From positions 1,633-65,632 of the forward strand of contig DASYKU010000065.1 in the NCBI GenBank assembly GCA_035995165.1: 64,000 bases of DNA. Direction: 5' to 3'. Position 1 is the stretch's first letter. Each line of letters begins with the position of its first letter. The stretch comes from Mycobacteriales bacterium. Its GTDB lineage: Bacteria > Actinomycetota > Actinomycetes > Mycobacteriales > CADCTP01. Positions 4,331-59,866 of this stretch are shown here, in pieces. The position numbers were made by a program, and so were the translations under genes. The notes under the pieces were generated by a model. That model was not told the origin of the DNA. It was given only the letters and a program-made list of their open reading frames with translations, and did no database searches.

Positions 4331-6118
4331 CTAGAGGTATTGACCCGTGTTCGAGATGGTGTCGATCGCCCGGCCGGACTCGGCGCCCTTGCCGGTGACG
4401 AGCGTGCGGATGTAGACGATCCGCTCGCCCTTCTTTCCGGAGATACGGGCCCAGTCGTCCGGGTTGGTGGTGTTGGGCAGGTCCTCGTTCTCCCGGAACT
4501 CGTCCAGGCAGGCGGTGACCAGGTGCTGCAGCCGCAGCCCCTTCGTACCGACCTCGAGGAAGTCCTTGATCGCCATCTTCTTGGCCCGGTCCACGATGTT
4601 CTGGATCATGGCGCCGGAGTTGAAGTCCTTGAAGTACAGGACCTCCTTGTCGCCGTTCGCGTACGTCACCTCGAGGAAGCGGTTGTCCTCGGTCTCGGTG
4701 TACATCCGCTCGACGGCGCGCTGGATCATCGCCGAGATCGTCGCCTGCCGGTTGCCGCCGTGCTCCGCGAGGTCGTCCTCGTGGATGGGCAGCGTGGTGG
4801 TGACGTACTTGGTGAAGATGTCCCGCGCGGCCTCCGCGTCCGGCCGCTCGATCTTGATCTTCACGTCCAGCCGGCCCGGGCGCAGGATCGCCGGGTCGAT
4901 CATGTCCTCGCGGTTGGAGGCGCCGATGACGATGACGTTCTCCAGGCCCTCGACGCCGTCGATCTCCGAGAGCAGCTGCGGCACGATCGTGTTCTCCACG
5001 TCGGAGGACACACCCGAGCCACGGGTGCGGAAGATCGAGTCCATCTCGTCGAAGAACACGATGACCGGGGTGCCCTCGCTGGCCTTCTCCCGGGCCCGCT
5101 GGAAGACCAGGCGGATGTGCCGCTCGGTCTCGCCGACGTACTTGTTCAGAAGCTCGGGGCCCTTGATGTTGAGGAAGAACGACCGGCCGGCGTCCTGACC
5201 CCGGACCTCGGCGACCTTCTTGGCCAGCGAGTTGGCCACCGCCTTGGCGATCAGCGTCTTGCCGCAACCGGGCGGGCCGTAGAGCAGGATCCCCTTCGGC
5301 GGGCGCAGCTCGTGCTCGCGGAACAGGTCCGCGTGCAGGAACGGCAGCTCGACCGCGTCGCGGATCTGCTCGATCTGGGACGCCAGGCCGCCGATGTCGG
5401 TGTAGTCGATGTCCGGGACCTCTTCGAGGACGAGCTCCTCGACCTCGGACTTCGGGATCTTCTCGTAGACGTAGCCGGAGCGGGGCTCCAGCAGCAGCGA
5501 GTCGCCCGCGCGCAGCCGCTCGGTCAGCAGCGTGTCGGCGAGGTGCACGATCCGCTCCTCGTCGGTGTGGCCGATGACGAGCGCACGGTCGCCGCCGGCC
5601 AGCAGCTCCTTGAGCATCACCACGTCGCCGGCCCGCTCGAACTCGCGCACGAGGACCACGTTCAGCGCCTCGTTGAGCATGACCTCCTGGCCGACCCGCA
5701 GGCCCTCCAGCTCCACGCTCGGGCTCACGGCCACCCGCAGCTTGCGGCCGCCGGTGAACACGTCCACCGTGCCGTCCTCGTACGTCTGCAGGTAGACGCC
5801 GTAGCCGCTCGGCGGCTGGGCGAGCCGGTCGACCTCCTCCTTGAGGGCGACGACCTGGTCGCGCGCCTCCCGGAGGGTGCCGGTCAGCTTCTCGTTCCGT
5901 TCGGTGAGCGTCGCCACCCGGCTCTGGGCCTCGGCGAGCCGCTCCTCGAGCACCCTGAGGTGGCGAGGGGACTCCGTCAGCCTGCGACGGAGCATGGAGA
6001 CCTCCTCCTCTAGGAAGGAGACCTGCGTCGTGAGCTCGTGAACGTCCTTCTCGTACCTCGAGGCACGGATCTCCTGGTCGTCGGAGTCGCTGGCCACGAT
6101 CACCACCTCCTGCGGCAA
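4331..6118 (-). CDS. arc: Proteasome-associated AAA ATPase ARC/Mpa
   Basis: 595 aa with an N-terminal coiled coil, Walker A GPPGCGKT, and a C-terminus ...NTGQYL (the QYL proteasome-docking tail). The exact start is uncertain by a few codons. Confidence 0.93.
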
Positions 6119-6494: not shown

Positions 6495-10681
<4,187 letters not shown>

Positions 10682-23909: not shown

Positions 23910-24248
23910 TCAGGTGCCGGCCGCCGGGACCCAGCGGCCGGGTGTGGAGCGGATCGCCCGCGCCAGCCGCGGCATCGGCGCCAGCGTCGAGTGCCCGCGC
24001 CGGCAGCGCAGGTCGAAGATCAGCTCCTCGAGGTTGCGCTGCACGAACTCGATCCGGTCCCGCATGCTGTCCCACTGCTCGAGTTGCTTCAGCAGCACGG
24101 CCCCGGCGGTGGGCTGCAGCCTCCGGCCGTCCGGGGCGGTCAGCTCCAGGCTCCCCGACAGCGGCCGGTACGCCGCCGCCGCCAGGATGTCCCCGCAGGC
24201 GGGGCAGGTCACCTGCTTGTCGATCTCCCGCCGTACGGCCAAGCGCAT
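23910..24248 (-). CDS. Conserved hypothetical protein, 112 aa
   Basis: G/C at the third codon position is near-uniform when checked by hand. The sequence MRLAVRREIDKQVTCPACGD... contains CxxC, with a later Cys/His. I recognise no family. Confidence 0.55.
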   Translation of the reverse strand: MRLAVRREIDKQVTCPACGDILAAAAYRPLSGSLELTAPDGRRLQPTAGAVLLKQLEQWDSMRDRIEFVQRNLEELIFDLRCRRGHSTLAPMPRLARAIRSTPGRWVPAAGT

Positions 24249-24295
24249 GCCGAAAGCCTAGGTCGCGCTGTTCACCGGCGCAGCACGATTAGGTC

Positions 24296-25030
24296 TCAGA
24301 ACGGTGGCCAGGGGATGGCGGGCCAGTCCCCCGACGGCTCGGGATAGCGGCGGTCCCGCAGCAGCCGGTCGACCCGGCGCCGCACCGCGACGACCTCGCG
24401 CCGGGTCAGCAGCGCCGACAGCCCGTCGTCCAGCGTGCCCTCCAGCAGCGCCCGGAACTCCGACAGCGCGTCGACGGCCTCCTCCGGAAGCGGGTCGCCG
24501 GCCCAGGACCACAGCACCGTCCGGAGCTTGTCCTGCTGGTGGAAGGACACCCCGTGGTCCACGCCGTACACGTGCCCGCCGACCATCGGGATCAGGTGGC
24601 CGCCCTTGCGGTCGGCGTTGTTGACGACCGCGTCGAAGAGCACCATCCGGCGCAGCGGGGGCAGGTCGTCGCGTACGAGCCGGGTCAGGTCGACGGTCTC
24701 GTCGCCGTCCATCCAGAGCTGGACCATGCCCTCGCCGTACGGGCCGTCGCGCAGGATGGTCGGCGGCACCACGTTCCAGCCCAGCGCGGTCGAGACGACG
24801 TACGCGGCGACCTCGCGCCCGGCCAGCGTCCCGTCCGGGAAGTCCCAGAGCGGCCGCTCGCCCCGGACCGGCTTGTAGACGCAAGCGGTGGTGACGCCGT
24901 CGCCGGTCAGCGCGCAGTAGAGCGTGGTGTTGCTCGCGTCGACCAGGCGGCCCTCGATGGACATCTCGCCGGTCCGCAGCAGCTCCAGCGCCTCGGACAC
25001 GTCGAGCGTCACGGGTTGGTCGTCGGCCAC
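24296..25030 (-). CDS. SCO1664-family protein (PI3/4-kinase-like fold, function unknown)
   Basis: 244 aa: GRLVDASNTTLYCAL...VYKPVRGERPLWDF...NNADRKGGHL...GVDHGVSFH. It occupies a position like Rv2133c, next to DUF3090 and a phosphomutase. Confidence 0.75.
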   Translation of the reverse strand: MADDQPVTLDVSEALELLRTGEMSIEGRLVDASNTTLYCALTGDGVTTACVYKPVRGERPLWDFPDGTLAGREVAAYVVSTALGWNVVPPTILRDGPYGEGMVQLWMDGDETVDLTRLVRDDLPPLRRMVLFDAVVNNADRKGGHLIPMVGGHVYGVDHGVSFHQQDKLRTVLWSWAGDPLPEEAVDALSEFRALLEGTLDDGLSALLTRREVVAVRRRVDRLLRDRRYPEPSGDWPAIPWPPF

Positions 25031-43876: not shown

Positions 43877-44824
43877 TCAGGCCCGGACGGTCTCGGGGAT
43901 CGGCGCGGCGTCGGCCATCGCGACCGCCACCTTCCGGGGTCCCGTGTACGGCTCGCGGCCGTGCGCGGTGAGCATGTTGTCGACGACGACGACGTCGTCC
44001 GGGTCGTAGTCGAACCGGGTGGACGCCGAGCGGTACGCCGCCCGCAGGTGCTCGGCGACCTCGTCGCCGATCCGGCCGCCGTCGCCGTAGTAGCTGCTCG
44101 CCGGCAGGGCGGCCTCCCCGTACATCTCCAGCAGGCCCTGCCGGGTCTCGGTCGGCAGGGTGGAGGGGTGGAAGACCGTGGCGTGGTTGAACCACACCTC
44201 CTCCCCCGTGACCGGGTGCCGGTGGATCGCGTCCCGGACGGCCGTGGTCCGCAGCACGTCGCGCTCCAGCCACTCGGCCACGATCCCCTGCCGGCGGCAG
44301 TAGTCCGCCACCTCGCCGCGGTCCTCGGTGCCGAAGACCTCCTGCCAGCGCAGGCCGAGCTCGGGGTGGAAGGTACGGACGACCGACCAGCGCCGCTGCC
44401 GGAACTCCTCGCGGACGTCCGGATCGATGGCGCGCAGCACGGCCCGGGTGTCGGCCAGCGGGGTGGCGCCCCCGGTGGCCGGCCTCCGTACGCACCAGAA
44501 CCACACGTGCGCCGGCCAGCTGCGCTGGTAGGAGTTCTCGTTGTGCAGGAAGATCTCCTGTTCCGCCGGGTACTCGGTGGAGGTGTAGACCCGGCCGCTG
44601 ATCTCGCTGCGCGGTGAGGACCGCTCGGAGTAGGCCAGCGGCTCGCCGGACAAGGCCCGGACCGCGGCGGCGAAGCCGTCCACACCGCCCACGTCGCCGC
44701 CCCGGAACAGCAACGCGCCGTGCTCGAGCAGTTCCGCCCGCAGCCGCGCGCGCCCGGCTCCGGCCAGCTGTGCGAGTGCCCGCCCGTGCGCGGGGACGAG
44801 GAGGACGAGGGAGGTGTCGATCAT
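43877..44824 (-). CDS. TauD/TfdA-family Fe(II)/2-oxoglutarate dioxygenase (SyrP/AsnO-like amino-acid beta-hydroxylase candidate)
   Basis: 315 aa. The facial triad is HNE (His codon 44543-44545, Glu codon 44537-44539) plus a distal His in NMLTAHGREPY. It is the last gene of the NRPS operon, with an ATGA overlap to the TEII gene. Confidence 0.85.
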   Translation of the reverse strand: MIDTSLVLLVPAHGRALAQLAGAGRARLRAELLEHGALLFRGGDVGGVDGFAAAVRALSGEPLAYSERSSPRSEISGRVYTSTEYPAEQEIFLHNENSYQRSWPAHVWFWCVRRPATGGATPLADTRAVLRAIDPDVREEFRQRRWSVVRTFHPELGLRWQEVFGTEDRGEVADYCRRQGIVAEWLERDVLRTTAVRDAIHRHPVTGEEVWFNHATVFHPSTLPTETRQGLLEMYGEAALPASSYYGDGGRIGDEVAEHLRAAYRSASTRFDYDPDDVVVVDNMLTAHGREPYTGPRKVAVAMADAAPIPETVRA

Positions 44825-45606
44825 GACCGCGGACCTTTCCGGAGTTGGTCGGCGAGCAGCTCGGGGAACCGGTCGCCGGTGAACGGATGGAAGTGCCCGC
44901 CGGGCAGCATCCGGAGGGTGAGTCCCCGGGCGGCATACTCGGACCAGGGCTCCAGGACGGCGCGCGGCACGGCCTGGTCCTCGGTCCCACCGAGGACCAG
45001 CAGCGGAGCCCGCACCGGCGGGCGATCCAAGGGCCGGTAGGAGTCCATCAGCGCCATGTCGCCCCGCAGAGCGGGCAGGAACGCCGCCAGCAGCTCGGGC
45101 TGGTCGGCCAGGGTGTCCGGGATCCCGCCGTACGTCTCGTGCACCGTCCGCACGAACTCCGCGTCAGAGAGTCCCTCCAGCGCGGTACGCCCGTGGTCGA
45201 CCAGGTGCGGGGCCGAGGACGACGACACGATCAGCATGCTCGGCACGAGCCGGTAGCGGCGCCACAGCTCGCCCGCCAGCTCGTAGCCGACGATGCCGCC
45301 CATGCTGTGGCCGAGCAGCGCGAACGGGACGTCCAGGAACGGCAGCAGCGCCGAGGCCAGCGCGTCGACGAGCTCGTCCATCCTCGTCATCGGCGGCTCC
45401 CCGAGCCGGTTCTCCCGGCCGGGCGACTGGACCGGGCAGACGTCGACGGCCGGGGCCAGCGGGTCGATCCACCCGGCGAAGGCCGACGCGCCGCCGCCGA
45501 CGTGCGGCAGGCAGAACAGCCGCAGGTCGCTCCCGCCGGTGCCCAGCCCGTACGGCAGCCAGCGGCGGTAGCGCTCGCGCCTCGCGAGCACCGCCGTCGC
45601 GCTCAC
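44821..45606 (-). CDS. Type II (editing) thioesterase
   Basis: I trimmed track ORF 44821..45867 to the GTG at 45604-45606. It has [12 protein letters not shown], the nucleophile motif GHSMGG, and the C-terminal PGGHFH. There is a GTGA overlap with the megasynthase stop. Confidence 0.88.
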
Positions 45607-48600
45607 CGCCCCTCCCCCGCGGGTAGGACGATCTCGCGCCGGGCGGCGACGCCGATCGGCTCCGGCCGGGGCCCGTCCACCGCCCGGTCGAGCTCGGCCG
45701 CCATCGCCGCCACCGTGGGCTCCTCGAAGACCAGGCTGAGCGGCAGCGCCGCGCCGAAGTCCTCGTTCACCCGGGCGATGAGGCGAGTCGCGACCAGCGA
45801 GTGACCGCCGAGCCGGAAGAAGTTGTCGTGCACCCCGACCTCGGACAGTCCGAGCACCTCCATCCACAGGCGACCGAGCCGCTGCTCGGTCTCGGTGCGG
45901 GCCCGGACCGCCTCCGGCCCGACCGGCAGCTCGCCCTCCACAGTGGACATCAGCGCCTGCCGGTCCAGCTTGCCGCTGGGCCGGCGCGGCAGCCGGTCCA
46001 GCAGCACGAACCGGGACGGCACCATCGGCGCCGGCAGCGCCGCCCGCAGCCCTTCGGCGAGGATCACCGGCTCCAGTCCGGACCGGTCGGCCGCGTCCGC
46101 GGCCGCCACGAAGGCGGTCAGCTGCGGGTCGCCGGCCACGTCCCGTACCAGGACGGCGGCGTCCCCGACGCCGGGCAGCGCCCGGACGGCCGCCTCCACC
46201 TCGCCGAGTTCGATCCGGTAGCCGCGGATCTTCACCTGGCCGTCGGAGCGGCCGACGTGCTCCAGCGTGCCGTCCGGCAGCCAGCGGGCGAGGTCGCCGG
46301 TGCGGTAGAGCCGCTCCCCCGGCCGGCCGCCGTGCGGTCGCGGGACGAAGCTGGCGGCGGTCCGGCCGGGGCGGCGCCAGTAGCCGCGGGCGAGCCCCGG
46401 ACCGGCGATGTGCACCTCGCCCGGCACGCCGGCGGGCACCGGTTCGAGGGCGTCGTCGAGGACGAAGACCTCGGTGTCCGCGACCGGCCGGCCGATCGGG
46501 GCGCGGTCCCGCCGTCCGGGCTCAGCGGGCCAGAAGGTGGCGGTGATGGTCGTCTCGGTCGGCCCGTACATGTTGTGCAGCCGGGCTCCGGGCAGCACCG
46601 CCGCGCACCGGTCCAGCAGCCCTGGCGGCAAGGTCTCCCCACCGCAGCAGATCGTCCGGACCGTGCCCCGGCACTCCCGCAGCGCCGGCTCCTCGAGGAG
46701 CACCGCGAGCATCGACGGCACCACCTTGAGGATCGGGCAGCGGTGCCGGACCAGCAGCCGCGCCAGGTACTCGGGGTCGTGCTGCCGTCCCGGTTCGGAC
46801 AGGACCAGCTCGGCCCCGTTCGACAGCGGGGCGAAGATCTCCCATACCGAGGCGTCGAAGCAGTACGAGAAGTTCTGCAGCACGCCGTCGCCGGGGCCGA
46901 CCGGCCACTGGGACTGCTGCCAGGCCAGGCGCCGGCCGGCCGCCGCGTGGCTGATCACCACGCCCTTCGGGACTCCGGTGGAACCGGAGGTGTAGATCAG
47001 GTAGCAGGGATTGCCCGGATCCACCCGCCCGGGCACGGGCGCGGCCGGCTGCGCGCCGACGGCCTCGCGGGCCGCGTCGAGCGCGAGCACCGGCCCGTCG
47101 AACGCGGCTTCCCACCGGCTCGTGGTGACCACCACCGGGCCGGCGACGTCGGCGCCCAGCGCGCGCAGCCGCTGGGGTGGGCTGTCGGGGTCGAGCGGCA
47201 CGTACGCGCCGCCGGCCTTCAGCACGCCGAGGATCGCGACGACCATGTCCACCGACCGGTCCAGGCAGATCGGCACCAGGGTCTCCGGTCCGACCCCGAG
47301 GCCGCGCAGGTGGTGACCGAGCCGGTTGGCGCGCTCGTCGAGGTCCCGGAAGCCCACCGCCTCGGCGCCGATCCGGACCGCGACCGCGTCCGGCGAGCGG
47401 CGGGCCGTGGCCTCGAAGGCCGAGTGCAGCAGGGTGTCCTGGGCCGGACCGGCCGGGCCCGCCGCCCAGTCGGTGAGCAGCCGCCGCCGGTCGGCGGCCG
47501 GCAGCGACGGCAGCGCCGCGAGGGGACGGTCGAGGTCGTCCGCGGCGGCCTCCAGCACGGCCAGCCACTGCCCGGTCAGCCGGTCGATCGTGGGCCGGTC
47601 GTACAGGTCGGTGTTGTACTGGACGAGCGCGGACAGCCCACCGCCGGCAGGCAGCACGTCGAGCAGCAGGTCGAACTTGACCGTGTCGCTCGGCACGTCG
47701 CCCACGCTCAGCGCCAGCCCGGGCAGCCGCACCGGGTCCACCGGCACGCCGATGTACTGGAACATCACCTGGAAGAACGGGCCGCGGGCCGGATCCCGGT
47801 CCGGGGCGAGCACCTCGACCAGCTTGTCGAAGGGCACCTCCTGGTGGGCGTAGGCGCCCAGGCAGGTGTCGCGGACCCGGGCCACCGCCTCCCGCAGCGT
47901 CGGCGCGCCGGACAGGTCGGTCCGCAGCACCAGCGTGTTGATGAACGGCCCCACCAGCGACCTCGTTTCGGGGCGGGACCGGTTCGCGACCGCGCTGCCG
48001 ATCGCGACGTCGTCCTGGCCCGCGGCGCGGGCGAGCGTGACGGTGAAGGCGGCCAGCAGCAGCATGTAGAGGGTCACGCCCTCGGCCCGGGCCACGGCCC
48101 GGAGCGAGTCGGTGAGACCGGGGTCCACCCGCAGCTCGGTCCGGGCGCCGGCGGAGGACTGCCGCTCGCCCCGCGGCCGGTCCGTCGGCAGCGCCAGGAC
48201 GGGCGTCCCGGCCAGCCGATCCCGCCAGTACGCCAGCTGGCCGTCGAGCCAGCTCGAGTTCAGCTTCCGCTGCTCCCAGGCGGCGACATCGGCGAACTGG
48301 ACCTCCGGCTCCCCGAGCGACGACGGACGCCGCTCGACCGCGGCCGAGTACTCCTCCTGGAACTCGCTGACCAGCAGGCCCATCGACCAGTGGTCGGCCG
48401 CGACATGGTGCACGGTCAGCAGCAGGCGGTGCTCCCGCTCGCCGAGGCGCAGCAGCGTCACCCGCAGCGGCGGGCCGGCGGCCAGGTCGAAGGCCAGGTG
48501 GGCGTGCTCGGTCGCCAGCCGGTCGGCGCCGCCCGGGTCCACAATGGACGATCCGGACAGGTCGACGAGGTCGAGCCGGAGCGGCGCCGGCCGGTCGACG

Positions 48601-51600
48601 ACGACGGTGGGCTCGCCGCCGGTCGCCCGGAAGCGGGACCGCAACGTCTCGTGCCGGGCGACGATCCGGGCCAGCGCCCGCCGGACCGCGCCGAGGTCCA
48701 GCCGTCCGGTCAGGTCCATCCGGCAGGACAGGTTGTAGTCGTGGGAGCCGGGCCGCAGCTGATCGAGGAACCAGAAGCGGCGCTGGGTGGACGACAGCGG
48801 CAGCGCGACGCTCCCGTCCCGCGGCAGCACGGGGATCGGAGCCGAGTGGTCACCGGCGGGCTCCGCGGCGCCGATCGCGGGCGGGGTGCCGCGGTCGAGG
48901 AGGCCGGCCGCGTCCAGTTCGGCCATGGTCGCGGTCACCGCGTCGACCACCCGGTCCACGTCGGCCTCGGTGTGCGCGAGGGACAGGAAGCAGTTGCGGC
49001 CCTCCCAGACGTACACGCCGTGCAGCAGGAGCAGGGCGTAGAAGAGCTCGGTGACCTCGGACTGGGGCGCTTCCCCGAGAAGCCGGAACCGGAACAGCGA
49101 CCCGAACCGGACCACCCGCAGCGGCAGCCCGCCGGCCGTGACGACGGCGTTGAGCCTGTCCACCAGCCGTTCGGTCCGCCGGTTCAGCTCCTCCTGCAGC
49201 ACGCCGCCGCCGTCCCGCAGCCGCCGCAGCACCGCCCGGCTGGCCGCCATCGCCAGCGGGTGCTTGCAGAAGGTGCCGGTGAAGAACGTCCGCCGCGCCG
49301 AGGGCAGCTCGCCACCGGCGAAGCTCCAGGCGCCGCCGTCGATGCCGTCCAGCCAGCGGGCGTCGCCCGCGACGATCCCGATCGGGAGCCCGCCGCCCGC
49401 GACCTTCCCGTACACGCTGATGTCGGCCCGGATGCCGAAGATGCCCTGGGCGCCGGCCGGATGGACGCGGAAGCCGGTGATGACCTCGTCGAAGATCAGC
49501 GGGATCCCGGCCCGCTCGGTGAGCGCCCGCAGCCGCCGCAGGAAGTCCACCGGCTGCAGCTCCGGCCGGCGGCTCTGCACCGGTTCCACCAGCACCGCGG
49601 CCAGCTCCCCGGCGTGCTCCTCGAGCGCGCGCAGCGCGGCCTCCCCGCCGTACCGCAGCACGAGCGTGTCGGCACTGATCGAGGCCGGCAGCCCGGGCGA
49701 CATCGGCGCCGCTGCGCCGGTGATCTGCGGGTCGGCCGGCCGGGACAGGATCGGGTCGGCCGAGCCGTGGTACGACCCGGCGAACAGCGCCACCCGGCTG
49801 CGGCCGGTCGCCGCCCGGGCCAGCCGGACGGCGAGCATCACCGCCTCCGAGCCGGTGTTGCAGAAGGAGACCCGCTCGTTGCCGGTGAGCTCGCGGACCA
49901 GGTCCGCCACCTCCGCCGCCAGCGGCGTCTGCGGTCCCAGTTGCATGCCGGCGTCGAGCTGGGCCCGGACGGCGTCGGTGACGAACGGCTCGTCGTGGCC
50001 GAAGAAGTTGACGCCGAAGCCCATCGTCAGGTCGACATACTCGTTGCCGTCGAGGTCCCAGATCCGGGACCCGACCGAGCGGCTGACGGTCAGCGGGTAG
50101 CGGATGTCCTTGAGGTCGAGGTGGCCGGTCAGCACGTGCCGGATGTCGGCGTGGCCGGGTCGTTCGCTGTCCGCGTGCCGGCGCGAGAGTTGGGTCCGCC
50201 CGGTGTAGCGGCGGACGACGTCGGCCAGGAACGTCTGCTGGTCCGGGCTCAGTGCGCTGCGCCGGTCCGGAGGCGCCGCGCTGAACGGCACATAGACGTC
50301 CGGCGGGGACGCGGGTGCGGCGGCCGGCGGCGGGGCGGGGATAGCGGCGGCGGGCGGGCGGGTTCCGGTCAGCAGCTCGTACGCCTGGGTCATCACCTGG
50401 GCGTGGACGGCCAGGAACCGGGCGGCCGGGTCGGCATCCACCGCGGGACCGGGAGCCACCGGACCGGGAGCCACCGGACCGGGAGTCGCCGGCCGGGAGG
50501 GCAACGTCCGGTGGGCGACCTGCCGGGTCAGGAAGTCGGTCAGCCGCCGCAGCGTGTTGGTCTCCTCGAACAGCTGGGCCACCGGGATCTCCACCCCGAA
50601 GCGCTCCTGGATCGTCTGCAGCGCCTGGATCAGCACGACGGAGTCGGCGCCGAGCCGGAGGAAGGACTCGTCCGGGTCGAGGTCGGCCTGGTCCATCTCG
50701 AGGAACTCGGCGAGCGTCGCGCGGACCACCGCGAGCACCTCGGCCCGGTCGGCGACCGGGATGGCGGCCGGTTCCGTGGCGGTGGTCTGTGCCGGTGCGG
50801 TCACGGGAAGCACCTCCGGTGCGGCGGCGGGCGGGCGGCCGGGCTCGGCGAACCAGTGCCGCGTGCGCTCGAACGGGTAGCCGGGCAGCGTCACCCGGCG
50901 GTACGGGTAGCCGGCGTCGACGCCGGCCCAGTCGACCGGGTACCCACGTACGTGCAGGCGGGCCAGGGAGTCGGCGAGCGTCGTCCAGTCGTCGCCCCGG
51001 CCGCGCAGCGACGGCAGCCAGTCGGCGCCGGGTCGGTCCCGGCCGCCGAGCGCGGTCAGCGTCGGGCGGGGCCCGATCTCCAGGTATCGCCGGATTCCTC
51101 GTTCCGCCAGGCGGTCGAGGCCGGCGGCGAAGCGGACCGGCTCGCACAGCTGCCGCGGCCAGAAGGCCGCGTCCAGCGGCAGCTCCGGGCCGACGAAGGC
51201 ACTGTCCACATCGGACACGAGCGGAACCCGCGGCCGGGCGTGCGGCAGCGTCGCCGCCAGCTCCGCGAGGTCCGCCTCGACCGGCGCCATGAGCGGCGAG
51301 TGGAAGGCGTGCGCGACCGGGAGCGGCCGGATCGCGTGCCCGTCCCGGCTCAGCACCGCCGTCACCGCGGCCAGCCCGCTCAGCGGCCCGGACAGCACGG
51401 TGTTCGCGGGGCCGTTGACGGCACCGACGACGACGTCCGGCGGGGACCCCGCGGTCGCGAGCGCCGCCCGGACGGTCGCCTCGTCGGTGAGCACGGCCGT
51501 CATGCCGCCGCCCGCGGGCAGTGCCTGCATCAGCCGGCCCCGGTGGGCGGCCAGCCGCAGGGCGTCGGCGTCGTCGAGCACCCCGGTCACCGCCGCGGCG

Positions 51601-53747
51601 GTGATCTGGCCGAGGCTGTGGCCGAGCGCGGCGTCGGGCCGGATTCCCCAGCCGGACCACAGCCGGGCCAGGGCGATGCCGAACGCGACCAGGGCGGGCT
51701 GCGCGTACTCGGTGCGGGACAGCAGCTCCTCATCGCCCCGGGCCGGAAACAGGATCGTCTGCAGTGGACGGTCGAGCACGCCGTCCAGCAGATCGGCGCA
51801 CCGCATCAGCTCGTCCCGGAAGACGGCGTTGGTCACGTACAGCTGCCGTCCCATGTGGACGTGCTGGCTACCCTGGCCGGGGAAGAGGAACGCGAGCGGC
51901 TCGGGGCCGCCGGGCCGCGCTGTCCCGCGGTGGACCGACCGGGACGGCCGCCCGGCGGCCAGCTCCCGCAGTCCTTGCACGAGCGCGGGCCGGTCGGTGC
52001 CGACGACCACCGCCCGGCGGGACAGCCGGCCGCGGCCCACGGCGGCGGTGTGGCAGACGTCGTCGGTCCGGTCCGCGGCGGATCCCAGGTGGCCGGCGTA
52101 CCGGCCGGCGAGGGCGGCGAGGGCGTCCTCGGTGCGGGCGCTCAGTGGCAGCACGTGCACCGGCCGGGCGTCCTCGATCTCCGCCTCGGCGGCCGGCTCG
52201 GGCGCCTCGCCGAGGACCACGTGGGCGTTGGTGCCGCCGAAGCCGAACGAGCTCACCCCGGCGACCCGCGGGACGGGGCCGCGCGGCCACGCCGACAGCG
52301 TCGTACCCACCTCGACCGGGCCGGCGGTCACGATGGCGGGATTGATCTCCCGCAGGTGCAGGTGCGGCGGCAGCTCGCCGGCAGCCAGCGCGAGCACGAC
52401 CTTGATCAGCCCGGCGATGCCGGCCGCGGACTCGGCGTGCCCGATGTTCGTCTTCACCGAGCCGACCACGCAGGGCTCCCGCCGCGCCGGGTCGTCGAGC
52501 ACCTCCTCCAGGGCGCGGAACTCGATCGGGTCACCGAGGCCGGTGCCGGTGCCGTGCGCCTCGACGTAACCGACCTCCGCCGGTGCGACACCGGCGTCGG
52601 CCAGGGCCCGGCGGAGGACCTGGCGCTGGGCCGTCCCGTTGGGCGCGGTCAGCCCGTTGCTCAGGCCGTCGGAGTTGACCGCCGAGCCGCGCACGACCGC
52701 GAGGACGCGGTCACCGTCGCGGCGGGCGGCCGCCAGCGGCTTGAGGACGACGACGCCGCAGCCCTCGGCCCGGACGTATCCGTCGGCGGCCGCGTCGAAG
52801 GTCTTGCAGCGCCCGTCCGGCGCCAGCATCCCGGCCCTCCGGAACACCCGGGTCACGTGCGGGGTCAGGATCAGGTTGACCCCGCCGGCCAGCGCGAGGG
52901 TCGACTCCCCGCTGCGCAGGCTGGCGCAGGCCAGGTGCACGGCGACCAGTGAGGACGAGCAGGCGGTGTCCACCGCCAGGCTCGGCCCACGCAGGTCGAG
53001 CGTGTACGAGAGGCGGTTGGCGGCGAGGCTGAAGGCCTGTCCGGTGCCGGCGTGCACCTCCGGAGCCGCCGTCCCCGCGGCCGCCTGCACGGCCCGGCCG
53101 TAGTCGGCGTTGCTGATGCCGACGAACACGCCGGCCGGGGTGCCGGCCAGCCGGTCCGGGGCGATCCCGGCGGACTCGAGGGCTTCCCAGGCGACCTCGA
53201 GCAGCAGCCGCTGCTGCGGATCGAGCTGCGCCGCCTCCCGCGGCGAGATCCCGAAGAACCCGGCGTCGAAGCCGTCTATCCGGTCCAGCAGCGAGTGCGG
53301 TCCGCCGAGCGGCTCGGTGCCGGGCCGGGCGGCGCCGTCGCCGGGCGGCACGTGCACGCCGTCGCGCAGCAAGCGCCAGAAGGCCTCGGGACCGTCCGCG
53401 CCGGGGAACCGGCAGCCGATCCCGATCACCGCGACCGGCCCCGGCACCGGGGCCGCCGGATCGCCGGCGTCCGCGGGCTCCGCCCCGCCGGTGAGATGGG
53501 CGGCGAGCCGGGCGATGGTCGGCTTTTCCCACAGCAGGGCGGCGGGGAGATTCTGGCCCAGCAGCCGTTCCAGGTCGCCCGCGAGTACCAGACCGTCGCG
53601 TGAGGACAGTCCGAACGAGCTGAACGGGGCGTGCTCGTCGATCTCGCCGGCGGGGACCGCCAGCTCGGTGGCCAGCCGCGCCCGCAGCCAGCCGGCCAGG
53701 GCCGCCGCGTTCGTGTGGACGTCGCCGGCCGGAGGAGACGCGGTCAT
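45603..53747 (-). CDS. Hybrid PKS-NRPS megasynthase with domain order ACP-KS-AT-ACP-aminotransferase(class III)-C-A-PCP
   Basis: 2714 aa. I located catalytic codons by hand. The N-terminal carrier has FGLSSRD (about 53601-53606). The KS Cys in DTACSSS is at 52959-52961. The AT Ser in GHSLGQ is at 51615-51617, and the HAFH motif is at 51297-51311. The ACP Ser in LGADSV is at 50640-50642. The PLP Lys in [12 protein letters not shown] is at 49404-49406, preceded by [15 protein letters not shown]. The C-domain HHVAADHWS has its His-His at 48405-48410. The A domain has [14 protein letters not shown]...NMYGPTE...PSGKLDR. The PCP Ser in LGGHSL is at 45798-45800. I found no KR, DH, ER or TE domains. 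Confidence 0.92.
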
Positions 53748-53748
53748 C

Positions 53749-55011
53749 TCAGCTCACCCCCGTCAGCTCGGGGTGGCGGCGCCGGGCCGGACTGAGCACG
53801 CCCAGCCCGACCAACGCGATCACCGCGCCCCCGCCGGCCAGGCAGACCGCACGCACCCCGGCGGTCCCGGTTGCCGCGGTCAGGATCAGCGCCCCGAGCG
53901 GCGCCAGCGCCGAGTGCAGGGTGCGGAACACGGCGGTCACCCGGCCCAGCAGGTGGTCCGGAGTGATCTGCTGCCGCAGCGAGACGGACGTGACCGCGGC
54001 GGCGGTCATCCCGAACGAGAAGGTGGCCGCGAGCACGGCCACCAGCGGGACGTCCGTGACCAGGCCGACCGCGGCCATCGCCACTCCGGAGACGAGGTTC
54101 GCGCCGAGCCAGGCGACGCCGAAGCCGAACCTGCGCCGCACCCGCGGGACGAGCAGGGCGCCGGCGATCGAGCCGATCCCGGCGGCCCCCAGCGCGTAGC
54201 CGACCGCGGTGTCGCCCTGCCCCAGGTCCGTCTTCAGGTAGTAGATGAACACGTCGGTGGCGCCGAGCGTGAGGAACGTCAGCGCGGACAGCAGCAGGGT
54301 CAGCGTCCGCAGGATCGGGCTGTTCCAGAGGAAACGCACCCCGGCCAGCAGGTCCCCCCACCCGGACAGCACCGGCTCGGTGCCGGCCCGGGCCTCCTCC
54401 GGCGGGCGCAACCGGATGACGGCCAGACCGGCCGCGGACACCAGGAAGCTCAGCGCGTTCAGCCCGACGGCGCCGGCACCGCCGACCGCCGCGGTCAGCA
54501 CGCCGGCGCAGACCGGGCCGACGACGTAGGAGAGCGCGAACGTCGCCTCGAGCCGGCTGTTCGCGTCCAGCAACTGGTCCCGGCGGACGAGGCTCGGCAG
54601 CACGGTCGCGTACGCGACCTGGAAGAGCATGCCGAAGGCCGCGGCGAGGACGGCCACCACGTAGAGCAGCCAGATCTGCGGCCGGAACAGCCAGCACAGC
54701 GGGATCGCCCCGTACAGCGCGGCCCGGACCAGGTCGGTGAGGATCATCAGCCGGCGCCGGTCGAACCGGTCGACGACGTGCCCGGCCAGGACGCCGGAGA
54801 CGATCCAGCCGGCCGTGCCCGCGGCGGTGAGCACGCCCATCTGGGTCACCGAGCCGGTCGCGGACAGCACCAGCAGCGGCAGCGCCACCAGCGCGAGCGC
54901 GTTGCCCGTCACCGACAGCGCCTGACTGGACCACAGGACCAGGAAGTCGCCGTTGCGGGACAGCGCCGGGCCCGGCCCGGCCACGGTGGCGACCCGGTCG
55001 TCCCCGGTCAC
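53749..55011 (-). CDS. MFS transporter (EntS/MFS_3-like exporter)
   Basis: This is the C-terminal 420 aa of track ORF 53749..58143, starting at the GTG at 55009-55011 ([49 protein letters not shown]...). It has about 12 TM helices. There is a GTGA overlap with the upstream NRPS stop and a 1-nt gap to the megasynthase start. Confidence 0.85.
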
Positions 55012-58000
55012 GAGATCCTCCGCGCGTCGGTCCCGGCGCCGAGCACAGCGCGTACGACGTCGGCGAGCTCGCCGACGTGCGGCGGCCGCAGCAGCCCGAG
55101 ATGGTCGCCCCCGACGACATGGGTGGTCAGCCGCCCGCCGGTCAGGTCGGCCCAGCCCCGGGCCGCCGCGGCCCGCAGCCGCGGGTCCTGCTCCCCCGCC
55201 TGGATCAGGACGACGTCCCCCGGGTACGGCCGGGGCCGCCAGGCCCGGGCCGCGGTCAGGTGATCCTGGACCAGCCCGAGCCGCTCCCGCAACCGGGCCT
55301 GCTCGGCCGCCGGCACCGCCCGCCGCAGGACGGCCAGCACGGCGTCCGCGAGGTCGCCGACCGGGGTGCCGGCCGGCACGTCGAGCTCGTCCGCGTCCGT
55401 CCCGTACGCCCGGGCGACCTCGGCCACGGCATCGCGGAGCAGCAGCGCGCGCTCGTCGTAGCCGGCCGTCTGGTCCGGCAGGTAGCTGTCCAGCAACAGC
55501 AGCGGGCCGGTCTCGGCCCCCCGCTCCCGCAGCTGGCGGGCGAGCTCGTACGCGATCACGCCACCCATCGACCAGCCCGCCAGGCACGGCCGGGGCGGCA
55601 GGTCCGCCAGGTGCGCGGCGGCGATCCCGGCGACCGTCCGCTCGGGCCCCGCCTGCAGCCCGTGCACCGGGCGGTCCCCCAGGGCGGCGGCCAGGCCGGC
55701 ATAGCCGGCCACGTCCCCGCCCGCCGCGGCGACACACACCAGCGGCGTGCCGACGCCGTCCCGGCGCAGCGGGACGAGCCCGCGATCGGGTGCCGGGCGA
55801 CCGCGCACCAGCCGGGCCAGCCGCGCCACCGACGACGGCTCGAGATCGCCGTCCGGGTCGGCGAACAGCGCGGCCAGCGGGATGACCCGGCCGAACTCGT
55901 CCTCGATCGCCGCGACCAGCCGCACGGCGAGCAGCGAGTGGCCGCCGAGGGCGAAGAACCCGTCCTCGGCGCCGACCTCGCCGACGTCGAGGCCGAGCAG
56001 GCCGGCGACCAGCGCGGCGAGCCGGCGCTCGACGTCGTCGCGGGGCGGCGCCGCCGGGCGGGTGCGGACCGGCTCGGCCGGCTCCGGCACCGGCAGCGCC
56101 GCCTCGTCGAGCTTGCCGTTGGCGGTCAGCGGCAGCGCGTCCAGCCAGCCGAACGCGGTCGGCACCAGGTGCTCGGGCAGCCGCGCGCGCAGGAAGTCCC
56201 GCAGGTCGGCGGCAGGCGCCCGGGCGCCGATGAGGTAGCCGGCCAGCCGCTCGGTCCCGCCGTCGCGCCGCAGCACCACCGCGGCGTCGCGGACCGCGGG
56301 GTGCTCCCGCAGCGCCGCCCGCACCTCCGCGGGCTCGACCCGGATGCCGCCGACCTTGATCTGCTCGTCGGCGCGGCCGAGGAACTGCAGCTCGCCGTCC
56401 GGCCGCCGGCAGGCGAGGTCGCCGGTGCGGTAGACCCGCGCCCCGGGCACCGGCGAGTACGGGTCGGGCAGGAAGGACCCGGCGGTCAGCCCGGGCGCGC
56501 CGGCGTAGCCGCGGGTGACCCCCGTGCCGCCGATGTAGAGCTCGCCCGGGACTCCGACCGGGACCGGCCGCATGGCGTCGTCCAGCACGTACGCGCGGGT
56601 GCCGGCGATCGGGCGGCCGATCGGGACGGCACCTGCGCCGGTGCCGTCGATCTCGTGCACCGTGCAGCCGACGACGGTCTCGGTGGGGCCGTACTCGTTG
56701 AAGACCCGGGCGCCGGCGGCCAGCCAGGGCGCGACGGCGTCCGCGGTCAGTTGCTCGCCGCCGACGACCAGCGTGCCGACGGCTCCGGGCAGCTCGCCGG
56801 GGGTCAGCTCGGCACCCAGCAGGGTCAGGTGGGACGGGGTGAGCTTGAGCAGCTCCGCGCGGCCGCGGCGCAGCGCGACGGCCGCCGCCCGGGGGTCGCG
56901 CCGGTCGACCATGGTCACGGTCCCACCCGCGACCAGCGGGGTCAGCAGGCCGGTGACCGTGAGGTCGAAGCCGATCGGCGAGTGGACGATCGACCCGCCC
57001 CGGCCGGCGTCGTACTGCCCGGCGCTCCAGAGCAGGTAGTTCGACAGCGCCGAGTGCGGCACGAGTACGCCCTTGGGCGTGCCGGTGGAGCCGGAGGTGA
57101 ACATCACGTAGGCCAGGCCGTCCGGCGTCACCTCCGGCCGGTCCCCCGGCACGGCTCCGGGCGGGTCCTCGGCGGTCACCGGCACGACCGTGCCGCGCCA
57201 GCCGCCCGGGCCGGCCGGCGCCGCGGTCAGCAGCAGCCGGGAGGACAGCCGCCCGAGCAGGCCGGCCACGCGCCGCTCCGGCAGGCCGGGGTCCAGCGGC
57301 ACGTACGCCCCGCCGGACTTCAGCACGGCGAGCAGGCCGACGACCAGGTCGGCGCCGTGCTCGAGCTGCACGGCGACCGGGATCTCCGGTCCGGCGCCGT
57401 GCCGGCGCAGCCGGTCCGCCAGCAGGCCGGCCCGGCGGTCCAGCTCGGCATAGGTCAGCTCGGCGTCGCCGTCCCGCACCGCGATCGCCCCGGGCGTCCG
57501 CCGGGCCTGCCGCTCGATCAGCTCGTGCGCACAAGCGGGCGGCGCGGCCGGCCTGGTGCGGGCCCGCAGCTCCGCCTGCTCCCGCGGTCCCACCGCGGTC
57601 AGCTCGCCGAGCGGCCGGTCCGGCTGCGCCAGCGCGTCGGCGAGCAGCAGCCGGTGCTGCTCGGCGAGCCGCGCGAGGTAGTCCGCGGACGCGTGGCCGG
57701 GAGCCCCGAGCCAGCTCAGCCGCAGCCGTCCGGGCGTGGCCAGGCAGCACAGCGTGACGTCGCACGGCTCGGTCCGGACGTCGAGTCCGGTGATCGCGAG
57801 CGACCCGCCGGCGGGCAGCGGCCGCGGCCGGTCGGCGAGGAACTCGAACCCGAACGACCAGCCGGCCAGGTCGTCCGCGAGCCCGGCGGCGGACCGCTCC
57901 TCCTTGGCCGCCAGCTCCCGCCGGGTGCTCAGGTCGGCGACCAGGGCCCGCCAGGTCGGGCCGGCGGCGCGCAGCCCGGCCCAGCGGTCGTACGGGCCGG

Positions 58001-58826
58001 CGCCGCCGGTCAGCTCGTCCAGGGTCCGGCCGGGCAGGGCCGTGCCGACGACCGGGCCGGGCGCCCCGCTGATCCGGCCCGCGAGCACCAGCCAGGCGGC
58101 CAGGAGCGGGATCCGGGAGTCGACCTGGTGCTCGGCCGCCCACCCGAGCACGGCGTCGCGCTCGCCGTCGGGCAGGTCGACCGTGCAGCGCTCGTCCGGA
58201 CCGGCCGGGCCGTACCCGCCGGGCAGCGGCCAGCCGATCCGGCCGGAGGTGTCCGCGGATCCGGCGGGGTCAGGGCCGTGCTCCGCGGCGGTCTCGCGCT
58301 GCCAGCCGGCGTACTGGCTGTATTGGACGACGTCCTGCGAGCCGGCCGCGTACGCACCCGGGTCGGCGTACGCGGCGGCCAGGTCGTCCGCGATCACGGC
58401 GCCGGTCGTGGCGTCCGCGACCAGCGGGTGCGCGGTGACGACGAGGGCCGGCCGGCCGGTGCCGCGGACCAGGGTCAGCCGCAGCAGCCGGTCGCCGGCC
58501 GGCGGGATGGCGCGTTCCCCCGCCACGACGGCCGCGAGCTCGCCGCGCCGCCCGGACGGCCCGGTGTCCACTGTGGACCACGGCGGCGCCGGCGCGGCCA
58601 CCGGCAGCTGGACCGCTCCGGCCATCCCGGGCAGCCGGCGGAACACCGATCGCAGGATCTCGTGCCGTTCCAGCACCAGCGCGGCGGCCGCCCGCAGCCG
58701 GTCCTGCCGGACCGGTCCGGCCAGCCCGATCACCGCCTGCACGTGACCCTCGAAGCCACCCCGCCGCAGCGCCCAGGACCGCTCCTGCTGGCCCGAGAGC
58801 TGGTATCCCTCGACGCGAGCCGTCAC
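55008..58826 (-). CDS. NRPS termination module: divergent C-like domain, A, PCP, TE
   Basis: GTG at 58824-58826, inside track ORF 55008..59501. The N-terminal roughly 420 aa are C-like (LSGQQERSWAL), but the HHxxxDG motif is degenerate, reading TAHPLVADA at 58410-58433. The A domain has AYVMFTSGSTGTPKGV, NEYGPTE and ANGKLDE. The PCP Ser (LGGHSL) is at 55935-55937. The TE Ser (GWSMGG) is at 55569-55571, and the C-terminal GGDHLG motif is present. Confidence 0.9.
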   Translation of the reverse strand: MTARVEGYQLSGQQERSWALRRGGFEGHVQAVIGLAGPVRQDRLRAAAALVLERHEILRSVFRRLPGMAGAVQLPVAAPAPPWSTVDTGPSGRRGELAAVVAGERAIPPAGDRLLRLTLVRGTGRPALVVTAHPLVADATTGAVIADDLAAAYADPGAYAAGSQDVVQYSQYAGWQRETAAEHGPDPAGSADTSGRIGWPLPGGYGPAGPDERCTVDLPDGERDAVLGWAAEHQVDSRIPLLAAWLVLAGRISGAPGPVVGTALPGRTLDELTGGAGPYDRWAGLRAAGPTWRALVADLSTRRELAAKEERSAAGLADDLAGWSFGFEFLADRPRPLPAGGSLAITGLDVRTEPCDVTLCCLATPGRLRLSWLGAPGHASADYLARLAEQHRLLLADALAQPDRPLGELTAVGPREQAELRARTRPAAPPACAHELIERQARRTPGAIAVRDGDAELTYAELDRRAGLLADRLRRHGAGPEIPVAVQLEHGADLVVGLLAVLKSGGAYVPLDPGLPERRVAGLLGRLSSRLLLTAAPAGPGGWRGTVVPVTAEDPPGAVPGDRPEVTPDGLAYVMFTSGSTGTPKGVLVPHSALSNYLLWSAGQYDAGRGGSIVHSPIGFDLTVTGLLTPLVAGGTVTMVDRRDPRAAAVALRRGRAELLKLTPSHLTLLGAELTPGELPGAVGTLVVGGEQLTADAVAPWLAAGARVFNEYGPTETVVGCTVHEIDGTGAGAVPIGRPIAGTRAYVLDDAMRPVPVGVPGELYIGGTGVTRGYAGAPGLTAGSFLPDPYSPVPGARVYRTGDLACRRPDGELQFLGRADEQIKVGGIRVEPAEVRAALREHPAVRDAAVVLRRDGGTERLAGYLIGARAPAADLRDFLRARLPEHLVPTAFGWLDALPLTANGKLDEAALPVPEPAEPVRTRPAAPPRDDVERRLAALVAGLLGLDVGEVGAEDGFFALGGHSLLAVRLVAAIEDEFGRVIPLAALFADPDGDLEPSSVARLARLVRGRPAPDRGLVPLRRDGVGTPLVCVAAAGGDVAGYAGLAAALGDRPVHGLQAGPERTVAGIAAAHLADLPPRPCLAGWSMGGVIAYELARQLRERGAETGPLLLLDSYLPDQTAGYDERALLLRDAVAEVARAYGTDADELDVPAGTPVGDLADAVLAVLRRAVPAAEQARLRERLGLVQDHLTAARAWRPRPYPGDVVLIQAGEQDPRLRAAAARGWADLTGGRLTTHVVGGDHLGLLRPPHVGELADVVRAVLGAGTDARRIS

Positions 58827-59866
58827 CGGGCCGTCCCCGCCGTGTCGTCCCGGAACTCGATGACGTCGCCCATCGCGACGAGCAACCGCCGCGGCCCGGT
58901 GAACGGGTCCCGGGCGTGCGCGGTGAGCACGTTGTCCAGCACCATGACGTCGCCCTGCTCCCAGTCCAGACCGACCTCCAGGCGCGCGTACGTCGCCAGG
59001 ACCGCGGCCATCGCGTCGTCCGGGATCGGCGTGCCGTCGCCGAAGGTGCACGTGCGGGGCAGCTCCCCGGCGCCGAGGCTGGCCAGCAGCGACGCTCGGA
59101 CCTGGCCGCCGAGACAGGACGGGTGCCAGTGCTGGGCCTGGTTGAACCAGGACAGCTCGCCGGTGACCGGATGCCGCAGCACCGCGGGCCGTACGCAGCT
59201 CGTCCGCAGGCCCTCGCCGCGCCAGCTGAAGCTCATCCCGTCGGCCGCGCACCGGGCCTCGACCTCGGCGCGGTCGGTGGTCCGGAACACCTCCCGCCAG
59301 TCCAGCCCGAGCCCGGCCCCGTACGTGCGGACGTAGCGGACGCCCTTGCGGACGAACTCCTCGCGCAGCGCCGGATCCAGCTCCGCGTACACGGCCCGGC
59401 TGTCGACCACCGGCGTCCGGCCACCGCTGGTGGCGGGCCGCAGGCAGCAGAACAGGATCCGGGCCGGGCCACGCGCGTTGAAGGAGTTCTCGTTGTGCCA
59501 CAGCAGCTTCTCCTCGGGGGCGAAGAAGACCGGCGTGTAGACGCCGCCGGTCACCGCCGCCCGCGGGTGCTCACCGTTGTCCCGCAGCAACCGGCCGACG
59601 AACAGGCCGGCGAACCGCTCGAACTCCTCCGCCGAGGCGATCCCCGCCCCGCGCAGCAGCAGCGCGCCGCTGCGCCGTAGCTCGGTCCGCAGCCGATCGG
59701 CGTGGGCGCCGGCCCAGGCGGGCAGGTCGACCCCGGCCGCGGCCGGCTCGACGACCGTCGGGAGCGTCGCGCCCTCGGACGGTCGCAGCCGGACCAGATC
59801 GGCACCGGCCAGGCTGACCCGGCGGGCGGAGAACTGCTTCGGTCCGCGCAGGGATTGCTCGGTCAT
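58823..59866 (-). CDS. TauD/TfdA-family Fe(II)/2-oxoglutarate dioxygenase (stand-alone beta-hydroxylase candidate)
   Basis: I trimmed track ORF 58823..60655 to the ATG at 59864-59866 (MTEQSLRGPKQF...). It has the HNE triad (His 59495-59497, Glu 59489-59491) and NVLTAHARDPF. It is wedged between two NRPS genes, with 4-nt overlaps on both sides. Confidence 0.85.
   Translation of the reverse strand: MTEQSLRGPKQFSARRVSLAGADLVRLRPSEGATLPTVVEPAAAGVDLPAWAGAHADRLRTELRRSGALLLRGAGIASAEEFERFAGLFVGRLLRDNGEHPRAAVTGGVYTPVFFAPEEKLLWHNENSFNARGPARILFCCLRPATSGGRTPVVDSRAVYAELDPALREEFVRKGVRYVRTYGAGLGLDWREVFRTTDRAEVEARCAADGMSFSWRGEGLRTSCVRPAVLRHPVTGELSWFNQAQHWHPSCLGGQVRASLLASLGAGELPRTCTFGDGTPIPDDAMAAVLATYARLEVGLDWEQGDVMVLDNVLTAHARDPFTGPRRLLVAMGDVIEFRDDTAGTAR

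Follow-up and report, generated by a model that had tools for sequence, protein, structure and literature searches.

A putative beta-aminoacyl initiation subunit with a MycA-like aminotransferase and an atypical condensation domain in an actinobacterial operon

Introduction

Beta-aminoacyl lipopeptides such as the iturins, puwainaphycins, laxaphycins, and occidiofungins are membrane-active antifungals, and in the literature searched most accounts of their biosynthesis concern Bacillus, cyanobacteria, and Burkholderia. The microcystin synthetase subunit McyE contains a ketosynthase (KS), a cis acyltransferase (AT), and an acyl carrier protein (ACP) domain, followed by an aminotransferase (AMT) and a nonribosomal peptide synthetase (NRPS) module. 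In MycA and ItuA, the corresponding subunits of mycosubtilin and iturin synthetases, a beta-keto thioester made by the KS is transaminated by an embedded class III pyridoxal phosphate (PLP) enzyme and handed to an NRPS module (PMC3870968, PMC11751314). Transamination of the beta-keto thioester by MycA with Gln as the donor is attributed to Aron et al. 2005 in the account given in PMC3870968. Iturin synthetase receives its malonyl unit from a trans-acting transacylase (PMC11751314), and in the puw cluster a separate fatty acyl-AMP ligase (FAAL) and ACP supply the starter for PuwE (PMC4219810). The gene described here encodes a hybrid polyketide synthase (PKS)-NRPS, referred to below as the hybrid, in a 64,000-nucleotide stretch (positions 1,633 to 65,632, the window) of contig DASYKU010000065.1 from a Mycobacteriales bacterium (assembly GCA_035995165.1). 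Mycobacteriales is used here for the broad GTDB order and does not denote the mycolic-acid bacteria.

The hybrid is proposed, with a probability of roughly 0.78, to be an initiation subunit that makes an N-terminal beta-aminoacyl peptide. It comprises a minimal PKS module with a cis AT, an AMT domain, and one NRPS module in a single polypeptide, as in PuwE and McyE. Apart from the identical Mycobacteriales protein in NCBI, its best homologues come from Kutzneria, Micromonospora, Kitasatospora, Amycolatopsis, Streptomyces, and Nonomuraea and are only 46-48% identical to it, and whole-protein identity falls to about 40-45% in hybrids from Burkholderia, cyanobacteria, and other groups. Of the best 120 homologues, 116 contain the same AMT, and an architecture of this type is common and of an already known kind. 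To a specialist it is unsurprising; the noteworthy variant features are the junction between the AMT and condensation domains and the lack of a visible starter loader.

Domain Organization

Pfam assigns the hybrid the order ACP-KS-AT-ACP-AMT-C-A-T, where C, A, and T are the condensation, adenylation, and thiolation domains of the NRPS module (Table 1). This is the open reading frame (ORF) and the domain order that the original prediction had given. The assignment includes three PP-binding stretches and KS-AT linker families, and the domain E-values rule out a chance match. Catalytic motifs are intact in all eight domains. No ketoreductase (KR), dehydratase (DH), or enoylreductase (ER) family is found in the hybrid at E <= 0.01, and the only AMP-binding domain is that of the NRPS A domain at residues 2111-2593. 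The AMT sits between the second ACP (ACP1) and the C domain, at the PKS-to-NRPS interface of a module without reductive domains. Because KR, DH, and ER are lacking, a beta-keto thioester on ACP1 is the only plausible amine acceptor.

The KS contains the motifs DTACSSS, EAHGTGT, and NIGH, and its Cys263-His-His triad is intact. In a per-domain comparison, the KS is 62-69% and the AMT 61-66% identical to those of actinomycete relatives. Motifs of the GHSLG, HAFH, and RTEYAQPAL type in an AT indicate malonyl-CoA. All three occur in the cis AT, which by these rules would be malonyl-type. The predicted HAFH signature is present at residues 813-816 and corresponds to 51300-51311; the span first assigned to it, 51297-51311, includes one codon too many.

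The N-terminal carrier (ACP0) has a predicted phosphopantetheine site at Ser49. Its identity is 39-47% with the N-terminal ACPs of actinomycete relatives and 32-47% with the ACPs located behind a fused FAAL in cyanobacterial-type relatives (P0093, P0115, P0116). This homology to N-terminal and FAAL-coupled ACPs identifies ACP0 as a probable starter-accepting ACP and not a stray peptidyl carrier protein.

Aminotransferase Domain

The AMT of the hybrid is assigned by sequence comparison to the PKS-embedded MycA-type class III aminotransferases. Its best match in the PDB is the MycA AMT (6KFM, 6KFR, 6KFU), aligned over 386 residues with E = 1.2e-121, 410 bits, and about 55% identity to 6KFM, while the best glutamate-1-semialdehyde aminomutase (GSAM) match in the PDB reaches only 8.7e-56. 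The two motifs and the lysine codon by which an embedded class III PLP domain had been recognized are located exactly as described. Lys1448 is encoded by AAG at 49404-49406 within a 12-residue motif at residues 1446-1457, and the second motif, of 15 residues, lies at residues 1297-1311. Lys1448 aligns with the lysine of the MycA YGK motif and of the GSAM GK(I/V)IGGG motif. The hybrid AMT and MycA also have in common a 12-residue insertion that is absent from the GSAMs compared, and an insertion of such size is described for the MycA-type group in a survey of assembly-line PLP domains (PMC3870968).

Neighbour-joining analysis of MycA and 26 embedded AMTs, with two GSAMs as the root, places all embedded AMTs with MycA, and a long branch separates them from the GSAMs. 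The hybrid AMT falls within an actinomycete sub-clade (70% bootstrap), and all 29 aligned AMT and GSAM sequences have K at the catalytic lysine position. HemL, the GSA 2,1-aminomutase, has the same Aminotran_3 fold and a PLP lysine motif, GK(V/I)xGGG, but is a stand-alone protein of about 430 residues that lacks the 12-residue insertion and lies across the long branch from the hybrid AMT. Homology therefore supports the original prediction that the AMT would aminate a KS-made beta-keto thioester by the logic of MycA and McyE. Neither of the two sequence findings named as speaking against it, a missing PLP lysine or grouping with folds other than aminotransferases, was made.

Condensation Domain

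The type of C domain in the hybrid and the lack of a starter loader and of an MbtH gene in the window weigh against the proposed initiation role. The best match to the hybrid C domain in every actinomycete relative is the second C domain of that relative (37-40% identity), and its identity to the C domain that follows the AMT is 30-36% in three actinomycete relatives. A bootstrapped neighbour-joining tree of 35 C domains unites those that follow the AMT in actinomycete, cyanobacterial, Burkholderia, and other relatives in a single clade, with a bootstrap of 100% when the hybrid C domain is left out and 0% when it is included. At 76%, the hybrid C domain groups with the first C domain of the C-A-T protein of Streptomyces griseus and with the C domains at the C-termini of the hybrids from Nonomuraea and Streptomyces, and it has the motif HHxAAD[H/Y/F]WS in common with the latter. 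In a survey of 116 AMT-bearing relatives, the post-AMT type was found in 114 and a distant metagenome-assembled genome gave a tie; the hybrid is the only one with a clearly elongation-type C domain. Since this domain lies outside the post-AMT clade, its use of a beta-aminoacyl donor is only putative.

In a 55-residue stretch at the junction between the AMT and C domains, which lies at 48.7-49.0 kb, the end of a T-C linker leads into the standard start of an elongation C domain. Nonomuraea-type hybrids continue after the PKS part with AMT-C1-A(Orn)-T-C2, and by comparison the hybrid looks as if C1-A-T had been removed. The source is a metagenome-assembled genome and the junction may be a mis-assembly; the reading frame and codon usage are undisturbed across it. 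If the enzyme works, the junction is a natural module-deletion design and would be useful to NRPS engineers.

Starter Supply

The window contains no FAAL or other acyl ligase, nor a remnant of one, by Pfam on all called genes or by tblastn with the FAALs of three relatives, and the N-terminal carrier with its FGLSSRD motif is without a ligase partner there, as had been predicted. The tblastn searches, with three FAALs, two MbtH proteins, and one P450, returned only weak superfamily matches on the three NRPS A domains. No MbtH gene was found in the window by tblastn, compared with a nearby MbtH gene in five of six relatives, and neither KASIII nor an extra ACP is detected there by Pfam on the called genes. 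Among the best 120 of about 8000 matches to a FAAL profile built from three relatives, none comes from the source contig, a weak negative.

All six relatives examined have genes for starter supply within 10 kb of their hybrids. A stand-alone FAAL is present in Amycolatopsis, Nonomuraea, Kutzneria, Kitasatospora, and Micromonospora. The Kitasatospora locus contains two FAALs together with an ACP and acyl-CoA dehydrogenases, and the Micromonospora locus has the order hybrid, type II thioesterase (TEII), MbtH, FAAL. In Streptomyces sp. NPDC026589 (L086:24595-27133), a KASIII-ACP-KASII set follows the terminal NRPS and no FAAL occurs within 10 kb, which suggests an alternative, fatty acid synthase (FAS)-type supply of starter to an AMT module of this kind. 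Of the seven loci, only that of the window lacks a visible loader within about 10 kb to each side of the hybrid.

An improbable explanation for these features is that the hybrid is decaying or rearranged, having had a C-A-T unit deleted and its loader lost, so that its PKS/AMT part no longer works together with the NRPS part and the operon makes nothing or a truncated peptide. The grouping of the hybrid C domain with second C domains, the only clear case among 116 relatives, would fit such a history, as would the absence of a FAAL and of FAS-type starter genes over about 10 kb, and of MbtH in the window. The 8.1-kb ORF is nonetheless uninterrupted, with intact catalytic motifs throughout its eight domains. 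Its third-position GC content of 95% matches that of neighbouring genes, the coupling of all seven genes of the operon is kept, and a loader may sit in the approximately 13 kb of contig beyond the window or elsewhere in the genome.

The chemistry could also proceed as proposed from a starter that no FAAL provides. ACP0 or the KS would then be primed from a KASIII/ACP/KASII set or from the acyl-CoA or acyl-ACP pool, and a short or unusual 3-amino acid would result in place of a lipid tail. This is quite unlikely, although it agrees with the absence of a FAAL from the window and of any match from this contig among the best 120 of the profile search. In the Streptomyces relative P0089, whose AMT is among the closest to that of the hybrid, a KASIII-ACP-KASII set is present and a FAAL is absent over 10 kb. 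An adjacent FAAL is, however, present in five of six relatives, the window lacks KASIII and an extra ACP, and ACP0 is homologous to FAAL-coupled ACPs.

Adenylation Domain

The A domain of the hybrid has the Stachelhaus code DAWKCGMITK when the ten GrsA-PheA positions are mapped. This reproduces the code originally extracted, and the decision to leave it without an assigned substrate still stands. The code occurs once among 1193 A-domain alignments from 510 proteins, and the nearest codes are DAAKVGGITK (7/10 positions) and the Gln-type DAWQFGLIDK (6/10). Asn is typically specified by a code of the DLTK type. The code of the hybrid is not of this type.

By overall sequence, the A domain is closest to Ser-type (DVWHxSLxDK) and Gln-type domains, with 43-50% identity. 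Among A domains mined from mostly giant NRPSs, the best identity of any long alignment is 50%. Position 278 is Lys in the hybrid, compared with His or Gln in the nearest Ser- and Gln-type domains, and position 331 is Thr, compared with Asp. This charge reversal suggests, at low confidence, that the substrate may be acidic.

Operon and Peptide Assembly

Seven minus-strand genes follow one another with 4-nt overlaps (ATGA/GTGA) or a gap of 1 nt, and 43877-63999 is a single translationally coupled operon. Besides the hybrid, it encodes two further NRPS subunits (NRPS1 and NRPS2), two TauD-family dioxygenases (TauD1 and TauD2), a major facilitator superfamily (MFS) exporter, and a TEII that fills the slot where several relatives carry MbtH and FAAL (Table 1).

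Table 1. Features of the operon and domains of the hybrid PKS-NRPS, in window positions. MT, methyltransferase; TE, thioesterase.
Feature	Position	Residues	Strand	Characteristics
NRPS1	59863-63999		minus	Pfam; C-A(MT)-T-C; code DLTKVGEVA-; middle module; runs past the window
TauD1, TauD-family dioxygenase	58823-59866		minus	Pfam TauD 1.2e-43; between NRPS1 and NRPS2
NRPS2	55008-58826		minus	Degenerate C-A-T-TE; code DLTKVGEVGK; terminal module
Degenerate C-like domain of NRPS2	57516-58826	N-terminal ~437	minus	AHPLVAD instead of HHxxxDG
MFS exporter, EntS-like	53749-55011		minus	Pfam MFS_1, MFS_3; NCBIfam; immediately upstream of the hybrid
Hybrid PKS-NRPS gene	45603-53747	2714 in total	minus	ATG start; uninterrupted 8.1-kb ORF
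ACP0, N-terminal carrier	53484-53705	~15-88	minus	PP-binding stretch; FGLSSRD at residues 45-51
KS	52353-53438	104-465	minus	ketoacyl-synt 3.6e-83; Ketoacyl-synt_C 2.9e-44
Cis AT	51048-51890	620-900	minus	Acyl_transf_1 8.5e-52
ACP1	50529-50729	1007-1073	minus	Best PP-binding stretch; GADS
AMT, class III PLP aminotransferase	49011-50096	1218-1579	minus	Aminotran_3 9.2e-48
C domain	47475-48803	1649-2091	minus	Condensation 1.2e-93; HHVAADHWS
A domain	45969-47417	2111-2593	minus	AMP-binding 2111-2457; AMP-binding_C 2516-2593
T domain	45678-45875	~2625-2690	minus	PP-binding stretch; GGHS
TEII	44821-45606		minus	Pfam Thioesterase 5.3e-39; GHSMG; start overlaps the hybrid stop by 4 nt
TauD2, TauD-family dioxygenase	43877-44824		minus	Pfam TauD 1.8e-45; last operon gene

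Full-length NRPS1 (P0241, on the same 79,004-nt contig as the hybrid) is a 1965-residue protein with one C-A(MT)-T-C module, and its start lies about 1.76 kb outside the window. The A-domain codes of NRPS1 and NRPS2 are both Asn-type. The terminal C domain of NRPS1 is intact (HHVAFDGWS). The C-like domain of NRPS2 has lost its catalytic His, and its Streptomyces cyaneogriseus orthologue, 36% identical over 414 residues, has TTTALAADG at this site. TauD1 is 57-63% identical to the TauD fused at the C-terminus of NRPS1 orthologues from Streptomyces and Kutzneria. The succession of the NRPS1 C domain, TauD1, and the degenerate C-like domain resembles the arrangement of a hydroxylase plus an "interface domain" that Reitz et al. 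in 2019 reportedly described for beta-hydroxy-Asp siderophores.

TauD2 shares 61-66% identity with stand-alone TauD proteins from Streptomyces clusters without PKS and AMT, and on this basis both TauD hydroxylases would belong to the peptide part of the pathway. A bestatin- or microginin-like scheme in which TauD2 alpha-hydroxylates the beta-aminoacyl chain was rejected for the same reason, as the kin of TauD2 stand in clusters lacking PKS and AMT. The C, TauD, and degenerate-C pairings of orthologous clusters point to the subunit order hybrid, NRPS1, NRPS2-TE.

A different order would follow if the hybrid were not the first subunit and the terminal C domain of NRPS1 delivered a peptide to an aminoacyl group on ACP0, with the KS and AMT then building an internal residue of the 3,4-diamino type. 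Its appeal is that NRPS1 ends in an intact C domain while the C-like domain of NRPS2 is without the catalytic His. In S. cyaneogriseus, a C-A-MT-T-C(-TauD) protein is nevertheless followed by degenerate-C-A-T-TE with no PKS, and because the same pairing exists in this PKS-less cluster, the terminal C domain of NRPS1 probably serves the NRPS2 module. The N-terminal carriers of relatives all occur with FAAL or FAS genes, and the window holds no free-standing A domain for loading ACP0. Feeding of ACP0 by NRPS1 was rejected because of the synteny of PKS-less clusters, and this order as a whole is hardly credible.

With the hybrid as the initiation subunit, an acyl starter would be placed on ACP0, probably by a trans-acting FAAL or by dedicated FAS-type enzymes whose genes lie beyond the window. 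Malonyl would be loaded onto ACP1 by the cis AT, and KS-catalyzed condensation would give a 3-oxoacyl-S-ACP1. The AMT would convert the 3-oxo group to a 3-amino group on ACP1 with an amino acid donor, which is Gln in MycA, and the C domain would couple the 3-aminoacyl thioester to a residue X activated by the A domain with the code DAWKCGMITK. NRPS1 would add a methylated Asn-type residue and NRPS2 an Asn-type residue, with two hydroxylations by the TauD enzymes at presumed sites in the peptide part. The predicted product would be beta-aminoacyl-X-(Me)Asn-(OH)Asn, in which the type of methylation is conjectural. TE would release it, possibly by lactamization onto the beta-amine as in the iturins.

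Genomic Context

A gap of 386 nt parts the operon from a coupled trio encoding an M20 peptidase, a short-chain dehydrogenase/reductase (SDR), and a quinone oxidoreductase. With 700 bits, the M20 peptidase is assigned to PRK07906, a conserved actinobacterial family. It was considered as a self-resistance gene and rejected, being a conserved PRK07906 member in its own coupled trio beyond the gap. Since positions 1 to approximately 40 kb are occupied by housekeeping genes, the cluster begins at 43877 and runs past the edge of the window. The GC content of the window is 70-79%, and that of the operon (74-79%) is slightly above most of the housekeeping block (69-78%).

The actinobacterial housekeeping block (1-43490) directly adjoins the operon. 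It encodes proteasome alpha and beta subunits, a member of the Pup ligase family, the Mpa/ARC ATPase, TrmI, a site-2 protease, and a signal peptidase. An ABC/FtsX pair, MetH, PAC2, an MshC-like ligase, UppP, and the M20 peptidase PRK07906 are also present. Mpa (4331-6118) is at most about 82% identical to proteins of uncultured Actinomycetota, Modestobacter and Geodermatophilus (Geodermatophilaceae), Frankiales, and Micromonospora, and this best identity indicates a source without a close cultured relative.

The plus-strand row at 30770-38030 encodes a family 2 glycosyltransferase, two NosD-like right-handed beta-helix proteins (1063 and 370 aa), and a UDP-glucose/GDP-mannose dehydrogenase, and is possibly a surface polysaccharide locus. 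Spurious long ORFs are typical of high-GC DNA. The 1134-residue ORF on the plus strand at 7277-10681 is matched by Pfam, as signal peptidase S26, only over its final 160 residues and overlaps a minus-strand M50 protease gene at 7376-8473. The real signal peptidase gene is probably much shorter, with a call based on third-position GC content at 8957-10681. On the minus strand at 23910-25030, two ORFs (112 and 244 aa) have coding-like third-position GC content and no Pfam match.

Comparison with Known Systems

MycA and ItuA share with the hybrid the ACP-KS-ACP-AMT-C-A-T core, and the catalytic Lys and the insertion are kept in its AMT. They differ in having a fused N-terminal acyl ligase, whereas the hybrid begins with a carrier domain and lacks a ligase. 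Their malonyl transacylase (FenF, ItuD) acts in trans, and the AT of the hybrid is in cis. The first NRPS module of iturin subunit A is specific for Asn, whereas the code of the hybrid A domain is not Asn-type. The hybrid C domain is not of the post-AMT clade, and its AMT belongs to a separate actinomycete sub-clade. The hybrid is therefore not a member of the iturin-family subunit A group (MycA/ItuA/BamA).

PuwE of the Cylindrospermum puwainaphycin pathway is similar to the hybrid in that a KS, cis AT, and ACP without reductive domains precede the AMT and one NRPS module. PuwE carries a monooxygenase domain after the AMT, and the hybrid has none. Cyanobacterial relatives often contain a fused FAAL, a luciferase-like monooxygenase, or TauD, while in the hybrid ACP0 is fused to the KS. 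By sequence, the hybrid fits the KS-AT-ACP-AMT-C-A-T class except for the clade of its C domain and the lack of a visible loader.

The clusters of Nonomuraea deserti, Kutzneria viridogrisea, Streptomyces sp. NPDC026589, Amycolatopsis, Micromonospora, and Kitasatospora contain the same xGLSSRD ACP. In the first three (L002, L003, L086), an MFS gene lies directly upstream of the hybrid, as in the window, and an Asn-like C-A(MT)-T-C protein, TauD, and a terminal Asn-type A-T-TE are also present. The hybrids of these actinomycete relatives are 3000-4100 residues long, with a post-AMT-type C domain and at least one more C domain or module, and the window hybrid is one module shorter. No product for the window cluster or its actinomycete relatives was found in the literature searched. 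The cassette is thus common in actinomycetes, in clusters without an assigned product, and constitutes a defined family for genome mining.

The framework of MFS, two TauD enzymes, C-A(MT)-T-C(-TauD), and degenerate-C-A-T-TE recurs, along with both Asn-type codes, in the clusters of S. cyaneogriseus (L005) and S. griseus (L004), which are of a kind widespread in Streptomyces. A plain C-A-T serves as their first module, and they contain a B12-radical SAM gene and no PKS or AMT. A tentative extension, doubtful at present, is that the locus is a functional rewired line in which a PKS-AMT lipoinitiation cassette on an elongation-type C domain has been grafted onto this Streptomyces-type tripeptide framework. 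If true, the line would give a very small beta-aminoacyl tripeptide, possibly a 13-membered cyclic lipotetrapeptide with a rhodopeptin-like topology. The post-AMT C clade would be dispensable for beta-aminoacyl donors, and the starter would be recruited from a loader encoded outside the operon. A direct link to rhodopeptin was rejected: only the ring topology would match, and the amino acid composition of rhodopeptin is presumably unlike that expected from two Asn-type codes. The literature searched contained no gene cluster for rhodopeptin. Across the actinomycete and Streptomyces clusters compared, the PKS/AMT cassette seems to be a replaceable front part of an otherwise conserved tripeptide line.

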